A DNA stretch of 64,000 bases. Origin: Patescibacteria group bacterium. Lineage in GTDB: Bacteria > Patescibacteriota > Patescibacteriia > CAIXNZ01. The position numbers and the translations under genes are program-made. This document shows positions 10,491-44,440 of the stretch, piece by piece (within the stretch, counting starts at the first letter, position 1; each line of letters begins with the position of its first letter). The notes under the pieces are model-generated. The model was not told the origin of the DNA, did no database searches, and was given only the letters and a program-made list of their open reading frames with translations. The DNA lies in contig JBAZJU010000001.1 of assembly GCA_041651155.1 (NCBI GenBank), positions 27,932-91,931 on the forward strand, read 5' to 3'.

Positions 10491-10653
10491 AAACAGGTCG
10501 CTTTTTTATTAGGATACTAATCTACGAATATTATACGAATCTACTAATATTTCCAGAAGGAATTTGTTGTAAATTTAGGGAATTTATGATAAATTTAAGT
10601 TATAAATATTAAAATTTTTTATGCCCTGCTTTAGCAGGCAATTGATTTTTTTG

Positions 10654-10696
10654 CCCACTTCCGCCGTCGCTGTGCTATGGCGGACAAGAAAGTGGG
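10654..10696 (+). promoter_or_regulatory. nested hairpin in the tyrS 5' leader
   Basis: CCCACTT-CCGCC...GGCGG-acaagaA-AAGTGGG gives an outer 7-bp stem and an inner 5-bp stem, 18 nt upstream of the tyrS ATG. A second hairpin GCCCTGCTTTAGCAGGC lies at 10623-10639. Confidence 0.3.
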
Positions 10697-10713
10697 GTAT
10701 AAATTTAAAAAAT

Positions 10714-11919
10714 ATGGCAAAAGTTATTATAGACGAAAAATTAATTGAGGAAATTTTGAGGCGGGGGGTGGAACATGTTTATCCAGAACCAGGCGCTTTG
10801 AAAAAAGTTTTAATGTCAGGTAAAAGAATAAGGATTTATTGCGGGTTTGACCCAACAGGGCCTGATTTACATATTGGCCATGGCAATCAGTTGCGCAAAA
10901 TGGCTCAATTTCAGAAATTAGGACATGAAGTGATTTTTTTAATTGGCGATTTTACAGCCAGGATTGGCGATCCGACTGACAAGCTAGCTGCCAGAAAACA
11001 GCTTACCAAAAAAGAAGTAGAAAAAAATTTTCAGGGCTGGAAAAAGCAAGCCAGCAGTATTTTAGATTTTGGCAATAAAAATCCTATTAAGATAATGTAC
11101 AATTCAAAATGGCATGAGAAATTAAAGCTATCTGATGCTTTAGAGCTTGGTTCAAAAGTGACTGTCCAGAGAATGCTGGAACGCGACATGTTTGAAAAAA
11201 GAATGCAGGAAGGCAAACCAATTTATTTACATGAATTTTTGTACCCATTGATGCAAGGTTATGATAGCGTGGTTATGGACGTTGACCTAGAAATTGGGGG
11301 AAATGATCAAACATTTAACATGTTAATTGGCCGTGATTTAATGAAAACTTTAAAAAACAAAGAAAAGTTTGTCTTAACTATTAAACTTTTAGTTGATCCT
11401 AATGGCAAAAAAATGGGCAAGACAGAAGGTAATATGGTGGAATTATCAGATAGTCCTGAAAATATGTTTGGTAAAATCATGTCCTGGCCTGATGAAATGA
11501 TTATTGAGGTTTTTGAAATTTGCACAGATGTTCCCTTGGTTGAAATTAAGAAAATGAAAGAGCAAATGCAAACCGGCACTAACCCTCGCAATTTTAAATT
11601 ACTATTGGCATTTGAGATTGTAAAAATTTACAAAGGCGAGAAAGCAGCCAATGAGGCTCAGCTTAATTTTATAAAAGTTTTTTCCAATAAAGAAATACCG
11701 GAAGAAGTAAAAAGTTATAAAGTAGAAAGTAGAAAGCTTTTGGAAATTTTGGAAGAAACCGGTTTAGTAACTTCCAGGTCAGAAGCGCGGCGGGTAATTG
11801 AGCAGGGCGGAGTGAAAATTGATAATGAAGTTATTAAAGATGTGAATTTTAATTTATCATCTGGCGAACATTTGATTCAGAAGGGGAAGAGATTTTTCGT
11901 GAAAGTGATTATTGAATAA
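10714..11919 (+). CDS. tyrS: tyrosine--tRNA ligase
   Basis: HIGH motif GFDPTGPDLHIGHG, KMGKTEGN (KMSKS), and a C-terminal S4 domain. Start placed at ATG 10714 (MAKVIIDEK). Confidence 0.9.
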   Translation: MAKVIIDEKLIEEILRRGVEHVYPEPGALKKVLMSGKRIRIYCGFDPTGPDLHIGHGNQLRKMAQFQKLGHEVIFLIGDFTARIGDPTDKLAARKQLTKKEVEKNFQGWKKQASSILDFGNKNPIKIMYNSKWHEKLKLSDALELGSKVTVQRMLERDMFEKRMQEGKPIYLHEFLYPLMQGYDSVVMDVDLEIGGNDQTFNMLIGRDLMKTLKNKEKFVLTIKLLVDPNGKKMGKTEGNMVELSDSPENMFGKIMSWPDEMIIEVFEICTDVPLVEIKKMKEQMQTGTNPRNFKLLLAFEIVKIYKGEKAANEAQLNFIKVFSNKEIPEEVKSYKVESRKLLEILEETGLVTSRSEARRVIEQGGVKIDNEVIKDVNFNLSSGEHLIQKGKRFFVKVIIE

Positions 11920-35363: not shown

Positions 35364-36840
35364 TTTCTAGTGTTTCCGTATTAATGAGCACAGTTTGTAA
35401 GCTGTGTATGTGCTCGCCACCAGGATTAATACAGAGCGTATTTCCGAGTAAAGTGACATTGGCGCCATAAAGCCGTGGCGCTTCATGGATGTGGCCGAAA
35501 AGAGCTATTTGTGGTTGCGCTTCCAGAATGAATTGCATTATGCCCTGACTGCCTGCGTGTTTTTGGCCATTCACTTGATCCAACACTTCGTAAGGTGGAT
35601 TATGAATTACCCAAACTGCTTTTTGTTCGCCAAGCTGGTTTTGCAAAACACGAAGCTCCGCCAGGATTTCTTTTGATTTTTTTTCCCAGGCTCGGTACAG
35701 GATTTTTGGTGGCAGGGATTCTACAAAGCTGTAGCCGACGATCGCAAAGTTTTCATCTAATTTGTGGATTTTACCGTGAAGATAGTAGATTATTCCTTCG
35801 CGTTCAGCTTCTTCTAGCAATGATGCGTTCTCAATCAGGTCGTCATTGCCGAGCATTGCATAGACTGGTTTATTGTTGTTGGCTGCTCTCCATTGTTTTG
35901 TCAGAGGCAGAAAAAATTTCTGAAAGAATTTCTGCTGAGCCTGTTTAAGGTGAGCAGGATCTTCTGCTTTATTTTTCAGTTGCGCTATGTTTGAATGTTT
36001 CGCCAAAGAAGCGATATGGGTTTCTTCCAGGATCGTTTTGTAGGCATGAGCCCGAAAGAGTCTTGTATTTGTGTCCTTGAATGATTGGAGAATATGCTTT
36101 GCCAGCGGGCTTTTATGCTCAAGTAAAACTTTTTCAACTCCGTGGGTAATCTTTGTCATTTGCCCTTGATAGAGCTCAAATAGAATGCACTCCAGCAAAT
36201 ATTGCGATGGTGCCCATTCAGAGAAATTTTTTATTTTTGAGCCAAGAGCCAGCGAACACTTGTGCGTAAAGGCATCGCGCATTGCTTCAGTCCAAGTCTC
36301 CTCTTCCTGCTTTAGCCAATCCACAACGCAATCACCTAAAATATCCAGCTCCATTTCAGAAAGCTGGAGTTGAGCCGGTTTCCCGACTGGCTCAGCGCTT
36401 TTGAAAAAAGCATAGAGCTTTTCAAGTATGATTTGTTCCATCATTAAGGTTTCAAACTCATAGAACTTGTTTGTCAGTTCATAGAGTATGTAGCCTTGTC
36501 GCTCTAGATGCCTTGCCAGAATTGCAGAGCCGATTCTCTCATTGAAAGTTTTGATGGCTTGCAAACTCTCTAAATAAGAATTTGATTTTAAGCTCTGTTC
36601 GAGACTGTCAGTCGGAATGACTTCGCCGTCTATAAGCGGCAGATCTTCGTCGTTAATTTCGTAATTTTCTTCTTCAGAGTAGTCAGGGTGCTGTGCAAGT
36701 TTGATAGCTACTGACTTGGGAGTCAGATCGCCACCAAAAACTATTGCATCAGCCTGCTCTTTTTGAGCTAGTCTGAACACAGCTTCAATGGCGTTTTGAT
36801 TCCCGTGTAGATCGGTAGCGTATACAAACCGCATGATCAC
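35326..36840 (-). CDS. calcineurin-like metallophosphoesterase with ~270-aa helical insertion
   Basis: Motifs YATDLHGN, GGDLTP, GNDD, and GHIHE. A long insert separates motifs II and III. Confidence 0.65.
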   Translation of the reverse strand: MIMRFVYATDLHGNQNAIEAVFRLAQKEQADAIVFGGDLTPKSVAIKLAQHPDYSEEENYEINDEDLPLIDGEVIPTDSLEQSLKSNSYLESLQAIKTFNERIGSAILARHLERQGYILYELTNKFYEFETLMMEQIILEKLYAFFKSAEPVGKPAQLQLSEMELDILGDCVVDWLKQEEETWTEAMRDAFTHKCSLALGSKIKNFSEWAPSQYLLECILFELYQGQMTKITHGVEKVLLEHKSPLAKHILQSFKDTNTRLFRAHAYKTILEETHIASLAKHSNIAQLKNKAEDPAHLKQAQQKFFQKFFLPLTKQWRAANNNKPVYAMLGNDDLIENASLLEEAEREGIIYYLHGKIHKLDENFAIVGYSFVESLPPKILYRAWEKKSKEILAELRVLQNQLGEQKAVWVIHNPPYEVLDQVNGQKHAGSQGIMQFILEAQPQIALFGHIHEAPRLYGANVTLLGNTLCINPGGEHIHSLQTVLINTETLEIEVKGGEKYDGT

Positions 36841-37001
36841 CTTACCTCCTTTTTGTTGTCAAAAAACGTTAGTTAAAATCAACTATAATTATATTTCAGA
36901 ATTTTAAAGTATAGCAATAATTAGGCATAAAGTCAATAGTAGCACTGGTAAATATTTTTTGCGACTTAAAAAAATTGCTTTTTTAGAGCAATTTTTTTTG
37001 A

Positions 37002-37075
37002 TGGGCGCTGGAGGGATCGAACCCCCGACCTACTCGGTGTAAACGAGTCGCTCTAACCAGCTGAGCTAAGCGCCC
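37002..37075 (-). tRNA. tRNA-Val (anticodon TAC)
   Basis: Reverse-complement folds as GGGCGCT/AGCGCCC acceptor, anticodon stem ACTCG/CGAGT with loop TTTACAC, and T-arm GGGGG TTCGATC CCTCC. Confidence 0.8.
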
Positions 37076-37211
37076 TGGAATAACTAATAACTTATAACTA
37101 TAACAATAACTCTTGGTATGCGCTTAGCGAAGCTGGTTGCCGTCCGTAAATACTTTAATTCACAACTGCCTGCCTGCCGTAGCTTTAGCGAAGGCAGGAG
37201 CTAAGCGCCCT
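37076..37211 (-). repeat. tRNA-Val-leader repeat unit A (136 nt)
   Basis: Minus-sense begins GGGCGCTTAGCTC, the first 13 nt of tRNA-Val(TAC). It is followed by the hairpin CCTGCC-TTCGCTAAAGCTACG-GCAGG, then GCAGGCAG, then the box AACCAGCTTCGCTAAGC. Confidence 0.5.
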
Positions 37212-37376
37212 AGAATAACTAATAATTTATAACGATAACAATAACTTTTGTAAGGAGCTTAGCGAAGCTGGTTATCACCCATAAATACATACTAACCAAA
37301 CTGCCTGCCTGCCGTAGCTTTTTTATCCGCCGAAGCTTTAGCGTAGGTGGAAGCGAAGGCAGGAGCTAAGTGCCCT
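37212..37376 (-). repeat. tRNA-Val-leader repeat unit B (165 nt), with nested mini-hairpin insertion
   Basis: Begins GGGCACTTAGCTC. Same architecture as unit A, plus an extra CCACCTACGCTAAAGCTTCGGCGG element inserted in the hairpin loop. Confidence 0.5.
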
Positions 37377-37393
37377 TGGATTTTTTTTGCGGG

Positions 37394-37475
37394 TGCGCGG
37401 GAGAGGACTCGAACCTCCACGCCTTGCGGCACAGGCACCTCAAGCCTGCTTGTCTACCGGTTTCAACACCCGCGC
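37394..37475 (-). tRNA. tRNA-Leu (anticodon GAG), long variable arm
   Basis: Reverse-complement folds as GCGCGGG/CCCGCGC acceptor, anticodon stem CAGGC/GCCTG with loop TTGAGGT, a 13-nt variable arm, and a T-arm with TTCGAGT loop. Confidence 0.75.
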
Positions 37476-37482
37476 AAAAGGT

Positions 37483-38190
37483 TTAATTTATATTATCAAG
37501 TATATTAAAAATTTTCAAGCGTTTTCTTCGTAAACATGGTATTTTATCTGAATAATAAATTTTTTTTAGTAAAATTTTCGATTCATTCTTGGCATATTTT
37601 AGTTGATATATTGTAGATTTTTTGGCATGAGTAATGTGCCCATTTAGATTAATAATTTGTTTGATACTTTTCCTTAACCATAAAATATGTTGTTTGCTTG
37701 CAGACACGAAAGTCGTATAAAACATTAAACTTGATTTCCAGCGTTTATCCCAATAAGAATAAAAGGAACCATCTCCATCAAAGTGACCTCTTAAAAAATC
37801 AAAAAAATATTGTTTAGGAATTTTTATGTCATTTAATATTTTCGTTTTGTTTGGCATTAACCCTATGCTTAATAAGAATTTATAAAAATTAACATCCCCA
37901 AATTGAATTACATAATATTTTTTTATTTTATTTCCACCCCGCGATTTTTTACCAATTTTGTTCGTTAATTTTAATATTTTTTTGAATTTTAAAACAAGCT
38001 CTTTGTCCTTAGATGTAAAGTGAATGTGCCTCTTATCAGATGAAAGATTTCCATCGGTTGTAATTAGTCCAATAATATAGGCAAACTCTGGAGCCCATTT
38101 AATTAAAATTTTTGATTGTGGTTTTGACATAATTATCTCAAATTCAAAGCGTCTGCCAATTTTATTATATAATATTTTTACTCTTAACAC
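37483..38190 (-). CDS. LAGLIDADG-family homing endonuclease (two-motif, free-standing)
   Basis: Two LAGLIDADG motifs: FAYIIGLITTDGNL and FLRGHFDGDGSF. Stop codon is 8 nt from the tRNA-Leu 5' end. Confidence 0.75.
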   Translation of the reverse strand: MLRVKILYNKIGRRFEFEIIMSKPQSKILIKWAPEFAYIIGLITTDGNLSSDKRHIHFTSKDKELVLKFKKILKLTNKIGKKSRGGNKIKKYYVIQFGDVNFYKFLLSIGLMPNKTKILNDIKIPKQYFFDFLRGHFDGDGSFYSYWDKRWKSSLMFYTTFVSASKQHILWLRKSIKQIINLNGHITHAKKSTIYQLKYAKNESKILLKKIYYSDKIPCLRRKRLKIFNILDNIN

Positions 38191-44375: not shown

Positions 44376-44386
44376 AACTTCGGTCT

Positions 44387-44440
44387 TCACCGACTGAAGT
44401 CGGTTTCGACCGACGAAGGTCGGCAGGCAGGCTAAAATAA
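44387..44440 (+). repeat. cluster of three overlapping hairpins ending in GGCAGGCAGG
   Basis: CTTCGGTC..GACTGAAG, then GTCGG-tttcg-ACCGAC, then CCGAC-gaag-GTCGG. The tail GGCAGGCAG also ends the tRNA-leader hairpins. Confidence 0.4.

Follow-up and report, generated by a model that had tools for sequence, protein, structure and literature searches.

A conserved element with sense and antisense copies of the tRNA 5' end directly upstream of tRNA-Val genes in Patescibacteria

The genomes of Patescibacteria are tiny and encode few protein regulators, and how this group controls its supply of stable RNAs is poorly understood. Leaders of rRNA precursors, as processing stalks or 'chaperone' helices, contain a flank complementary to the mature 5' end and pair with it transiently in the precursor. 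Bacterial RNase P also cleaves some hairpin substrates that are not tRNAs. In Nanoarchaeum equitans, tRNA genes are reportedly split, and the pieces are joined via complementary flanks that do not belong to the tRNA. Pairing of a leader with the 3'RCCA end is described as inhibiting the RNase P catalytic complex (PMC9433436), and in a synthetic RNase P riboswitch the pairing of the leader with the tRNA termini is described as affecting RNase P (PMC7897497). Dispersed palindromic repeats of the REP/RAYT type, which are relevant to one part of the element described here, are introduced in PMC3116915 and PMC3733652.

The locus studied here lies in a 64-kb stretch of DNA (the window) from a candidate-phyla bacterium. 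It contains three units, termed A, B and C, each located directly 5' of a tRNA-Val gene and each opening with a copy of nt 1-12/13 of the adjoining tRNA (the mimic). This copy is followed by a GC-rich hairpin (P2), a joining segment, a conserved box and an AT-rich linker. The units and their operons are composed as follows.

37490..37518, minus strand: sigma-70-like promoter (TTGAAA-17-TAATAT with TG), 5' of tRNA-Leu
37391..37476, minus strand: tRNA-Leu(GAG), first gene of the operon; unit B begins 15 nt downstream
37212-37376, minus strand: unit B, the distal copy, slightly degenerate
37363-37375, minus strand: mimic of unit B, 12/13 to the tRNA
37308-37363, minus strand: P2 of unit B, with a nested hairpin at 37326-37351
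37274-37307, minus strand: joining segment of unit B
37255-37273, minus strand: box of unit B, AACCAGCTTCGCTAAGCTC
37212-37254, minus strand: AT-rich linker of unit B
37076-37211, minus strand: unit A, the copy adjoining tRNA-Val(TAC); 113.8 bits with covariance model R1
37198-37210, minus strand: mimic of unit A, 13/13 to the tRNA
37173-37198, minus strand: P2 hairpin of unit A
37139-37172, minus strand: joining segment of unit A, CAGGCAGUUG...UUUACGGACGGC
37120-37138, minus strand: box of unit A, AACCAGCTTCGCTAAGCGC, 17/19 to the reverse complement of tRNA nt 3-21
37076-37119, minus strand: AT-rich linker of unit A, 44 nt
37002..37075, minus strand: tRNA-Val(TAC), whose nt 1-21 (37055-37075) recur in sense as the mimic and in inverted form as the box
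36968..36999, minus strand: A/T hairpin and T run directly 3' of tRNA-Val(TAC), read from the sequence as a putative operon terminator
4115-4143, plus strand: promoter-like site upstream of tRNA-Ile(TAT)
4157..4229, plus strand: tRNA-Ile(TAT), first gene of the second operon; unit C begins 5 nt downstream
4235-4370, plus strand: unit C, 89.5 bits with covariance model R1
4235-4247, plus strand: mimic of unit C, GGGCAATTAGCTC, 13/13 to tRNA-Val(GAC)
4247-4272, plus strand: P2 of unit C, CCCACC...GGTGGG
4273-4308, plus strand: joining segment of unit C
4309-4327, plus strand: box of unit C, AACCAGCTTCGCTAATTGC, 17/19 to the reverse complement of its own tRNA nt 3-21
4328-4370, plus strand: AT-rich linker of unit C
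4371..4447, plus strand: tRNA-Val(GAC), with AA at nt 5-6 instead of the GC of tRNA-Val(TAC)

The tandem arrangement upstream of tRNA-Val(TAC), which had been described in an initial annotation of this DNA, was recovered by Tandem Repeats Finder as a period-135 repeat at 37063-37321 (1.9 copies, 84% matches). Since this range begins at 37063, the start of the array lies within the tRNA 5' end. On the minus strand, unit A starts with GGGCGCTTAGCTC, identical to nt 1-13 of tRNA-Val(TAC), and unit B with GGGCACTTAGCTC, which agrees with it at 12/13 positions. A length of 13 nt had been given for this copy. It holds for units A and C in the window, but C and U both occur at position 13 within the family, and the identity of the mimic to the tRNA is therefore firm for nt 1-12. 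The hairpin, its GGCAGGCAG run, the mini-hairpin nested in unit B and the third unit upstream of tRNA-Val(GAC), with the same architecture, are all present as annotated. A search for the mimic pattern GGGCRNTTAGCTC yields exactly five perfect matches in the 64 kb, namely the two tRNA-Val genes and the three units. The box AACCAGCTTCGCTAA occurs exactly three times in the window, once per unit. With up to three mismatches allowed, nine matches are observed against a shuffle mean of 2.03, and 0/100 shuffles reach nine. No further unit in the window is found by covariance model R1. Two near-matches at 35626-35640 and 35545-35557 are located inside a 504-aa ORF in the wrong order and are thus attributed to chance. 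A small peptide gene was likewise rejected as a candidate: the ATG of units B and C (ATGG[GA]TGATAACCAGCTTCGCTAA) is not conserved and reads ACG in unit A and in loci L001, L005b, L007, L008 and L009.

The conserved box is indeed present once per unit, but it is not the arbitrary motif as which it had been listed. Opposite-strand matches to the box with two mismatches fall inside the tRNA-Val genes (4377-4391 and 37055-37069) and thereby reveal an antisense relation. The box is the reverse complement of tRNA nt 3-21 except for a fixed 2-nt mismatch at nt 12-13 (TC vs GA), which is kept in every unit seen. Complementarity of the box to its own tRNA is 17/19 in most loci. This relation had been missed, and it changes the mechanistic picture. 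Similarly, the segment previously labelled variable holds a conserved YGGAYG block.

Mimic and box follow the tRNA where it varies. At tRNA-Val(GAC) genes (unit C and L008), the GC at nt 5-6 is replaced by AA in both. The D-loop of the L013 tRNA reads AGTTGGTT and the box there AACCAACT, such that the box follows the change at nt 16; L014 has the same D-loop change, leaving a G·U pair with the box. The co-variation of box and tRNA comprises two independent events, at nt 5-6 and at nt 16, and correction at the DNA level between short inverted repeats could also be their source. The distance from the box to the tRNA start is 55-65 nt.

Eleven further contigs of Patescibacteria (named records: Parcubacteria, Falkowbacteria) contain the unit, in each case directly 5' of tRNA-Val; an inspection of other CPR genomes for this arrangement had been suggested earlier. 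Two of the loci, L001 and L005, stem from sediment of Lac Pavin. It is present at 10/10 Leu-Val(TAC) loci recovered from other contigs, and covariance model R1 finds no unit away from tRNA-Val in the window or the fetched loci. PurD proteins encoded beside the unit loci are 51-88% identical to the PurD of the window. Mean pairwise identity reaches 94% in the box and 91% in the tRNA but drops to 64% over the 42 nt that precede the box and to 43% in the linker, the length of which is held at 36-46 nt across loci. The invariance of the box is in part an ascertainment effect, since the box formed part of the search patterns for most loci; the four loci that entered via a neighbouring protein (L011, L013, L014 and L015) still carry it. 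Units diverge together with their genomes, and paralogous P2 types are sorted differently among genomes. One or two units are found per locus, with collapsed relics in L007 and L014. Linkers of tandem units are near-identical within a genome and different between genomes, and GAC-type and TAC-type units share their non-tRNA parts. Exceptions to the general occurrence are the Ile-Val(GAC) spacers of a Falkowbacteria and a Buchananbacteria contig. These lack the unit, which is therefore dispensable there; the Falkowbacteria genome carries a unit at its TAC locus. L021 contains an independent-looking partial copy of the tRNA-Val 5' end (16/17) without the remainder of the unit. Genome-scan matches L002, L003 and L004 (an Alphaproteobacteria MAG, a Saccharibacteria MAG and Pantoea) have neither tRNA-Val nor a unit adjacent, and two box-pattern matches in viral contigs are one and the same coding sequence, which lacks both a tRNA and an R1 match; all of these were dismissed as chance.

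A gathering-threshold scan of the window with Rfam 15 returned three tRNA matches only. An E-value scan of 36950-37520 gave both tRNAs and low scores far below gathering, none of which spans a whole unit. The units match no T-box, ribozyme, Y-RNA-like, 6S, tmRNA or other Rfam family. Literature searches yielded no description of the element, and neither Rfam nor the literature provided a natural leader with sense and antisense copies of its own tRNA 5' arm or a tRNA leader conserved in a gene-like manner across families. A tRNA-Val leader of this kind appears to be undescribed.

Where promoter-like sites were found, they lie exclusively 5' of the tRNA that heads the operon; the site at 37490..37518 is the sole one upstream of the block of tRNA-Leu, unit B, unit A and tRNA-Val. 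Because of this placement, the units look like transcribed spacers. Weak -10-like hexamers can be seen by eye in the AT-rich linker, but a promoter there was rejected, as the consensus scan finds none in any linker of the window or the other loci. Typically, the unit starts 5-16 nt downstream of the upstream tRNA. The hairpin at 36968..36999 is missing from the terminator scan because it has too few G-C pairs. Neighbouring ORFs encode a LAGLIDADG protein, a metallophosphoesterase and PurD. The LAGLIDADG ORF abuts tRNA-Leu not only in the window but also in L007 and L014. Neither an integrase nor a transposase is associated with the window's units.

Two helices are supported by the alignment. 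P1 pairs mimic nt 3-11 with the 3' half of the box (97% paired). For P2, pairing amounts to 89%; four of its six pairs show compensatory changes, G·U pairs occur as well, and its covariation score exceeds all 500 shuffles. In L010 and L015, the tips of P2 are C(UUCG)G tetraloops; together with the G·U pairs, these point to RNA rather than DNA. The outer pairs of P1 are its least conserved part, being mismatched in unit B, L007 and L014 and unpaired in GAC-type units. In many TAC-type units, the 3' strand of P1 runs on as AGCGC-AUN-CCA, where G1 and G2 can pair with the CC past a 3-nt bulge and an A follows as at the tRNA discriminator position. The 5' half of the box, AACCAGCU, is complementary to D-loop nt 14-21 and weakly paired in the lone unit (mean unpaired probability 0.51 vs 0.04 for the P1 strand). 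A helix P3 (AGGC-A-GUUG with CAAC-CA-GCUU), proposed by RNAalifold as its intramolecular partner, was rejected: it is weak, invariant or broken with almost no compensation, lost in L013 and L014, and absent from single-sequence folds.

The box is shared by mutually exclusive predicted helices, with the mimic in P1 or with tRNA nt 3-21. In the predicted minimum free energy fold of unit, linker and tRNA, the box pairs with nt 3-21 of the real tRNA in 13/13 loci (15-17 pairs), with seven pairs in 12 loci and six in L010 between mimic nt 1-7 and the 3' acceptor strand of the tRNA. The switch is predicted to become favourable once tRNA nt 1-21 exist (-55.5 vs -43.0 kcal/mol). For the whole precursor, the strand-swapped fold is predicted to be 7-20 kcal/mol better than separate folds in the 13 loci, and the native fold may nevertheless win in vivo, since tRNA tertiary structure, Mg2+, modifications, co-transcriptional kinetics and processing do not enter the free-energy model.

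Three explanations had been offered in the initial annotation: a small element that targets or duplicates the tRNA-Val 5' end, a decayed tandem tRNA array, and a conserved structured leader. Only in part does this set stand, and the leader fits best, with its sequence, P1 and P2 kept in distant genomes and its position inside a tRNA operon without a promoter-like site of its own. An element that targets or duplicates the tRNA 5' end is conceivable, given that the P2 hairpin has dispersed relatives beside a Y1 transposase gene in two related genomes and that another lineage (L021) has an independent-looking partial 5' copy of tRNA-Val. We tentatively propose, with a probability of roughly 40%, that the unit is a cis-acting RNA that gates the folding or maturation of pre-tRNA-Val. 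The units would be transcribed as internal spacers of tRNA operons with two genes (Leu-Val and Ile-Val), and each would encode a conserved RNA of ~100 nt followed by an AU-rich linker of ~44 nt. This RNA would consist of the mimic (sense nt 1-12), the GC-rich P2 hairpin and the box (antisense nt 21-3). A lone unit would close into P1 and leave AACCAGCU exposed. The 5' arm of the nascent real tRNA could then bind to AACCAGCU and displace the mimic from the box, and the freed mimic could pair with the tRNA 3' acceptor strand. In this way, the leader would compete with the native cloverleaf and gate or divert pre-tRNA-Val folding and 5' maturation, and a nuclease cut in the AU-rich linker would release the native tRNA. 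The trapping of an essential tRNA by its own leader looks costly, and any benefit is hypothetical. It is doubtful, though conceivable, that the element represents a natural strand-exchange device in a tRNA precursor, in which an anti-D-loop segment captures the 5' arm, a decoy strand enters the acceptor stem, and the supply of tRNA-Val is set post-transcriptionally by RNA folding kinetics or nuclease access, as a lineage-wide, RNA-only layer of control.

In these genomes, 3' trailers of the 'type-2' kind carry an antisense and a sense copy of the tRNA 3' end. Under the strand-exchange reading, a similar logic may apply to tRNA 3' ends there.

The main rival to the gating leader is a selfish or neutral palindromic DNA repeat, because P2 belongs to a dispersed hairpin family. 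The unit would then be a by-product of partial direct and inverted duplication of the tRNA-Val 5' end with a REP-like mobile hairpin inserted as P2; its likeness to the tRNA would be kept by unequal recombination or template switching, and it would have no RNA function. P2-type hairpins are dispersed over about six non-tRNA contexts across the window and the loci. They are found in the tyrS 5' UTR (window 10654-10697), in the NusA C-terminal tail and in a split T-arm relic after tRNA-Leu. Another is nested at GCU^AAAGC within the P2 of unit B itself, and a hairpin beside a Y1_Tnp gene has one inserted at a similar site. Y1 transposase genes (PF01797) are located amid many GC hairpins, 1.5-3 kb from the locus, in L005/L018 and L011; the match (E = 7e-8) is assignable to RAYT or IS200 alike. 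The variable copy number with collapsed relics, the near-identical tandem linkers and the partial copy in L021 also fit. A hairpin GCGCTTGCT...AGCAAGCG beside the Y1 gene was considered as a 'mini-unit' with a tRNA-like stem and rejected; membership in a GUGCG-stem-CUAAAG-stem-CGAUAAU series of hairpins, together with a P2-type insertion, explains it better. Against neutral DNA, the non-tRNA segments GGCAGGCAGU and YGGAYG are conserved, and the box is kept at 94% identity beside a linker decayed to 43%. Frequent correction between inverted repeats should erase the TC vs GA mismatch that every unit retains. The compensatory changes, G·U pairs and UUCG tetraloops of P2, the sense orientation of all units and all dispersed hairpin copies relative to local transcription, the presence of the unit at all ten Leu-Val(TAC) loci and the lack of a Y1 gene in the 64-kb window are also unfavourable, and this explanation is judged unlikely, if the least so among the alternatives.

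Slightly less probable is a processing scaffold or by-product. Here, P1 would copy the 5' strand of the acceptor and D-stem to ensure clean cuts by RNase P (upstream, by RNase Z), separating the tRNAs and releasing the ~100-nt RNA, and the pairing of box and tRNA would be incidental. P1 is the most robust helix, its extension in TAC-type units offers the G1/G2:CC pairing and the discriminator-like A, and the unit starts shortly after the upstream tRNA. However, the outer P1 pairs, which are most important for RNase P site choice, are the least conserved, and the unit lacks a T-arm-like element. Such a scaffold also leaves AACCAGCU unexplained, which lies outside P1, is invariant and yet follows the tRNA D-loop in L013.

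The footprint of a mobile or integrative element is improbable. It would require insertion into tRNA-Val at about nt 12/13 of an element that brings a replacement 5' arm. The original 5' portion would remain upstream as the mimic, and tandem units would result from repeated insertion. In favour are the direct repeat of nt 1-12 on either side of each unit, the existence of tandem arrays, a linker that moves together with its unit, and the LAGLIDADG ORF abutting tRNA-Leu at three loci. The common non-tRNA parts of GAC-type and TAC-type units imply transfer between the two tRNA-Val loci, and in the Falkowbacteria contig the GAC locus is without a unit that the TAC locus of the same genome has. 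On the other hand, no integrase or transposase accompanies the units of the window, the element measures only ~135 bp, and the box matches the resident tRNA, not a donor. The divergence of units with their genomes and the sorting of P2 paralogues indicate old vertical inheritance instead of recent mobility.

A little more improbable still is a DNA cis-regulatory site, in which box and tRNA 5' end form a 19-bp inverted repeat around the AT-rich linker that is bound by a protein and controls tRNA-Val transcription. The repeat matches at 17/19 positions and its spacing of 55-65 nt is kept despite the unconserved linker sequence, but a consensus promoter is absent from every linker scanned, one arm lies inside a tRNA gene whose sequence is constrained anyway, and the RNA-type signals of P2 (G·U, UUCG) and the mimic are left unexplained. 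A decayed tandem array of tRNA-Val pseudogenes, to which the first 12-13 nt, a CAGUUGG after P2 loosely resembling D-loop nt 13-19 and the apparently truncated 5' tRNA fragment in L021 might point, is very improbable and largely refuted for the unit family, as the earlier statement that these are not pseudogenes already held: ARAGORN and the Rfam tRNA model (RF00005) call only the four true tRNAs and nothing over 37076-37376 or 4235-4370 at E<=10, the middle segment, aligned locally to tRNA nt 14-76 (sense) and 76-22 (antisense), does not outscore shuffles (p = 0.5-1.0), the 3' block has antisense and not sense orientation, and the non-tRNA parts are conserved.

If the spacer acts as RNA, it would provide cis gating of tRNA folding and maturation, for which no description was found, and it would be testable, since particular alternative helices and RNase P cleavage sites can be predicted from the sequences. 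Should the spacer instead be selfish DNA, it would be an example of palindromic repeats that colonise and reshape tRNA operons in these lineages. Either way, it is an unannotated, alignable element, and covariance model R1 can be used for finding copies in other genomes.

Among known systems, partial tRNA duplications at island and phage integration sites likewise place a direct repeat of a tRNA end beside an intact tRNA. Unlike them, the repeat here is of the 5' end, spans 12 nt, encloses ~120 bp of non-coding sequence and is joined by an antisense copy, with no integrase nearby; the repeats lie ~135 bp apart next to LAGLIDADG, metallophosphoesterase and PurD genes, not as expected of att sites. 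The swapped fold resembles the split tRNAs of Nanoarchaeum equitans in that the tRNA receives its 5' strand from elsewhere, but a complete tRNA gene is present and the host is a bacterium. With REP/REPIN sequences and their RAYT (Y1) proteins, the P2-type GC hairpins share stems that vary with compensation and the ability to nest, and they may also share dispersal and the clustering around a single-copy Y1_Tnp gene that is seen in two related genomes. In contrast to REPs, the whole unit is not dispersed and occurs at tRNA-Val only, the hairpins are all sense to transcription, the CGTC/GTAG-like tetramers are located in the internal loop of the hairpin and not at its foot, and the window has no Y1 gene.

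As in attenuator and T-box leaders, a three-segment logic (1:2 vs 2:3) is found: the box has two possible partners, the mimic and the downstream tRNA arm, and the choice between them is predicted to alter the fate of the downstream RNA. Unlike these, the unit has no terminator or antiterminator, specifier, T-box sequence, Rfam T-box match or known ligand, and control would act on the folding of a tRNA and not on the transcription of an mRNA. With rRNA leaders, it shares a probably transcribed flank complementary to the 5' end of the mature RNA; it differs by adding a decoy copy of that end and by having a tRNA as its target. In the polycistronic tRNA leaders and spacers of bacteria that are processed by RNase P, RNase E and RNase Z, finally, the general layout is the same: the unit is encoded between two co-oriented tRNA genes, promoter-like sites are located only upstream of the first tRNA, and an AU-rich single-stranded stretch follows the unit.

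ARAGORN predicts four tRNA genes in the window, and each of the two tRNA-Val genes is directly preceded by one or two of the units:

4157-4229, forward strand: tRNA-Ile(TAT)
4235-4370, forward strand: unit C
4371-4447, forward strand: tRNA-Val(GAC)
37002-37075, reverse strand: tRNA-Val(TAC)
37076-37211, reverse strand: unit A
37212-37376, reverse strand: unit B
37391-37476, reverse strand: tRNA-Leu(GAG)

In the tRNA sense, the 300-nt gap between tRNA-Leu and tRNA-Val(TAC) holds two tandem units, and a third occupies the gap between tRNA-Ile and tRNA-Val(GAC). Tandem Repeats Finder reports an array at 37063-37321 (period 135, 1.9 copies, 84% matches), so the repeat starts within the 5' end of the tRNA itself. 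Within the 64 kb, the 13-mer pattern occurs without mismatch five times, in the two tRNAs and the three units, and the 15-mer box AACCAGCTTCGCTAA three times, once per unit. The tRNA calls, the repeat array and the pattern matches thus bear out the initial annotation, which had placed tandem units upstream of tRNA-Val(TAC) and the same architecture upstream of the other tRNA-Val gene. The conserved box that it described is also present in each unit, but its antisense relation to tRNA-Val nt 3-21 had been overlooked. With up to two mismatches, the box pattern is also found in both tRNA-Val genes, on their opposite strand (4377-4391 and 37055-37069). The box, AACCAGCT-TC-GCTAAGCGC, corresponds in reverse complement to tRNA-Val nt 3-21 (AACCAGCT-GA-GCTAAGCGC), departing from it solely by a 2-nt change that faces tRNA nt 12-13. 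The order of the unit is therefore:

mimic: sense copy of tRNA nt 1-12
P2: GC-rich hairpin
joining segment: CAGGCAGUUG ... UUUAYGGAYG
box: antisense copy
linker: AT-rich, ~44 nt, leading into a further mimic or into the real tRNA

At nt 5-6, tRNA-Val(GAC) has AA and tRNA-Val(TAC) has GC; the mimic GGGCAATTAGC and the box end GCTAATTGC of the unit at tRNA-Val(GAC) both carry the matching change.

Related contigs were sought by one scan each of a genome collection and a metagenome collection, which yielded L001 and L005-L010 as contigs with units; the three remaining matches of the genome scan (L002-L004) were rejected as chance. The gene adjoining the locus encodes phosphoribosylamine-glycine ligase (PurD), and contigs with PurD homologues added four unit-bearing loci (L011, L013, L014, L015), in whose selection the box sequence played no part. 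The arrangement that the initial annotation had proposed to look for in other CPR genomes is present in all of these contigs, in every case between tRNA-Leu(GAG) and tRNA-Val(TAC) or, in L008, 5' of tRNA-Val(GAC). One or two copies are found per locus, with collapsed relics in L007 and L014; records that carry a name belong to Candidatus Parcubacteria and Candidatus Falkowbacteria MAGs. In the window and the fetched related contigs, the covariance model R1, built from 16 units, matches these units and nothing else.

Across the unit-bearing contigs, PurD is 51-88% identical to that of the window. In mean pairwise nucleotide identity the box reaches 94% and the tRNA 91%, compared with 64% for the 42 nt that precede the box and 43% for the linker, whose length is nevertheless held at 36-46 nt; the distance from box start to tRNA start is 55-65 nt. 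Mimic nt 2-12 equal those of the unit's own tRNA in 13 of 13 tRNA-proximal units. In L013, the tRNA-Val D-loop reads AGTTGGTT in place of AGCTGGTT, and the box of both units reads AACCAACT in place of AACCAGCT, with no compensating change in the putative partner inside the unit. L014 has the same D-loop change and keeps the box G, so that a G·U pair is still possible in RNA. Few as such events are, the complementarity of box and tRNA is therefore better conserved than box pairing within the unit. During replication, correction between short inverted repeats could also let the box track the tRNA, but it should have erased the universal TC/GA mismatch as well, which persists.

Two helices are supported by RNAalifold and single-sequence folds alike. 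In P1, which is 97% paired, mimic nt 3-11 base-pair with the box's 3' half. P2 is 89% paired, with G·U pairs and, at four of six pairs, compensatory substitutions (CCUGCC/GGCAGG, CCCACC/GGUGGG, UCCGCC/GGCGGA and others), and its covariation score exceeds those of all 500 shuffles and all slid controls. The length of its distal part is variable, and in L010 and L015 this part is capped by C(UUCG)G tetraloops; these tetraloops and the G·U pairs indicate that the tRNA-sense strand is under selection as RNA. RNAalifold also put forward a third helix (AGGC-A-GUUG / CAAC-CA-GCUU), which was set aside, being invariant or broken and missing from L013 and L014. Within the unit, pairing of the 5' half of the box (AACCAGCU) is thus weak, with a mean unpaired probability of 0.51 versus 0.04 for the P1 strand.

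Promoter-like consensus sites lie 5' of the first tRNA in both window operons and in L013, and none was found in any linker scanned; in L001 and L008 the scan gave none upstream either. An A/T hairpin and T run directly follow tRNA-Val(TAC) on its 3' side. Because of this placement, the units are most simply read as internal transcribed spacers. When unit, linker and tRNA of 13 loci were folded together, the predicted minimum-free-energy structure was strand-swapped in all 13. In this predicted fold the box forms 15-17 pairs with nt 3-21 of the real tRNA, and mimic nt 1-7 pair with the tRNA 3' acceptor strand. It is predicted to beat the separate unit and tRNA folds by 7-20 kcal/mol, in nearest-neighbour energies that take no account of the tertiary structure of the tRNA or of modifications, kinetics and processing. 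In unit A, switching is predicted to be favourable once tRNA nt 1-21 exist (-55.5 vs -43.0 kcal/mol).

The best explanation, to which we give a probability of roughly 40%, is a conserved cis-acting RNA that gates or diverts the folding and 5' maturation of pre-tRNA-Val. In vivo, the unit would swap strands with the 5' arm of the tRNA and thereby gate or divert both processes; release would probably come about by a cut within the AU-rich linker. What the analysis establishes is the anatomy of the unit, its conservation, P1 and P2, the tracking of the tRNA by mimic and box and the computed energetics, whereas transcription, exchange in vivo and any benefit are inferred.

The alternative that the unit is purely selfish DNA draws on the P2 hairpin, which is shared beyond the unit (motif UCYGCC-U[UA]C-GC...GC-U[AU]CG-GGCRGA-CARG), also beside a transposase gene:

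window 10654-10697: in the tyrS 5' UTR
L005: in frame in the NusA C-terminal tail
L005, L006, L010: within a split T-arm relic after tRNA-Leu
unit B: nested in its own P2 at a GCU^AAAGC site
L005/L018: at a site of the GCU^AAAGC kind, in a hairpin beside a Y1 transposase gene (PF01797)

The tyrS 5' UTR (10620-10713, forward strand; the Tyr-tRNA synthetase ORF starts at 10714) begins with the hairpin GCCCUGCUUUAGCAGGC, followed by the P2-type hairpin within an outer stem CCCACU/AGUGGG; neither has an Rfam match. In L005 (7800-7960, forward strand), several P2-type sequences are in frame in the Ala-rich NusA tail (…KASAFAEATADRSEGKEEE*), so the repeat is tolerated within a coding region. Y1_Tnp genes (IS200/RAYT-like) are located in L005 at 136-675 (forward strand; L018 7560-8045) and in L011 at 1192-1677 (forward strand), 1.5-3 kb from the tRNA-Leu/Val locus and amid many GC hairpins with CUAAAG loops; in L018 a ~140-nt direct repeat brackets the gene. 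The L005 and L011 copies are 87% identical, whereas PurD of those genomes is far more diverged. Since these hairpins and genes resemble a REP/RAYT system, a contribution of mobile DNA appears real. A purely selfish origin is nevertheless opposed by the dispersed P2 copies all being sense to local genes, the full unit being seen at tRNA-Val alone, the conservation of unit segments without a tRNA counterpart and the retention of the fixed 2-nt mismatch.

Further copies of tRNA ends occur in the flanks. The Ile-Val(GAC) spacer was compared in contigs fetched via the QueA neighbour. In L021 (a Buchananbacteria MAG) the spacer is 69 nt long (3327-3395, reverse strand), starts with GGGCAATTGGCTCAGCC, which is identical to the tRNA-Val 5' end at 16 of 17 positions, continues with two small hairpins and has no R1 match. 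The Falkowbacteria contig has a unit at Leu-Val(TAC) and none at Ile-Val(GAC), where the spacer holds a different element, with antisense and sense copies of the preceding tRNA 3' end in its terminal GGUGGGC-UUAG-GCCCACA; the same trailer follows tRNA-Val(TAC) in L011 and L013. A second, conserved spacer element (L024 3687-3770, forward strand; L011 about 4250-4340 and L013 about 4215-4295, reverse strand) begins right at the tRNA 3' end (CC-U[AU]CGC...) and ends GCUUCG-GUGGGC-UUAG-GCCCACA. Its GGUGGGC stands antisense to GCCCACC at the tRNA 3' end, which GCCCACA repeats, and the mimic/box design is thereby mirrored. Given the L021 copy and these trailers, copies and inverted copies of tRNA termini seem a recurring theme of these tRNA operons, consistent with a lineage-specific way of processing or folding, or else with a mutational process that acts on tRNA ends in this lineage.

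A second T-arm follows tRNA-Leu(GAG) in L005 (2051-2110, forward strand), L006 (about 525-581, reverse strand) and L010 (533-605, forward strand), split by GC hairpins (CAGGTT[hairpins]CAAATCCTG) and followed by an acceptor 3' strand copy CCTCGGCA. In L011, L013 and L015 the functional T-arm is the uninterrupted form of this one; the relic is a partial 3' duplication of tRNA-Leu whose T-loop holds a P2-type hairpin. In the window, a free-standing LAGLIDADG_3 homing-endonuclease-like ORF (37483-38190, reverse strand, 235 aa) stops 7 nt ahead of tRNA-Leu, with homologues likewise placed in L007 (88% identical) and L014. Downstream of tRNA-Val, before a small ORF (4519-4869), a block CCACA...ACTCTTTGAGTAA...TTTACCCCCTA (about 4470-4515, forward strand) is conserved in L008, L009, L011 and L013 and is possibly a further leader element. 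At 44376-44435 (forward strand), immediately after the yidC stop codon, come three short GC hairpins (TCGGTcttcACCGA and others) and then GGCAGGCAGGC, and L012 has a similar cluster between nusA and yidC (6350-6382). The tRNA-Ile gene with a UAU anticodon, an uncommon bacterial way of reading AUA codons, is also found in L021 and L024.

The unit fitted none of the described families against which its membership was tested. It is neither a tRNA nor a tRNA pseudogene, in agreement with the initial annotation; no Rfam family matches it, T-box included, and no conserved peptide is encoded. It lacks the tag that REP elements carry at the hairpin foot and the integrase of an integrase-bounded island. 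The element is real and conserved and apparently undescribed, as no description was found in the literature searched, and its proposed mechanism is testable. It is best filed as a variant of a structured cis-acting tRNA leader. It would behave most like an alternative-pairing leader, after the fashion of attenuators or of the leader-to-mature-sequence helices of rRNA. Among the conceptually closest parallels found are the inhibition of RNase P through pairing of a leader with the 3' end (PMC9433436) and a synthetic RNase P riboswitch (PMC7897497).
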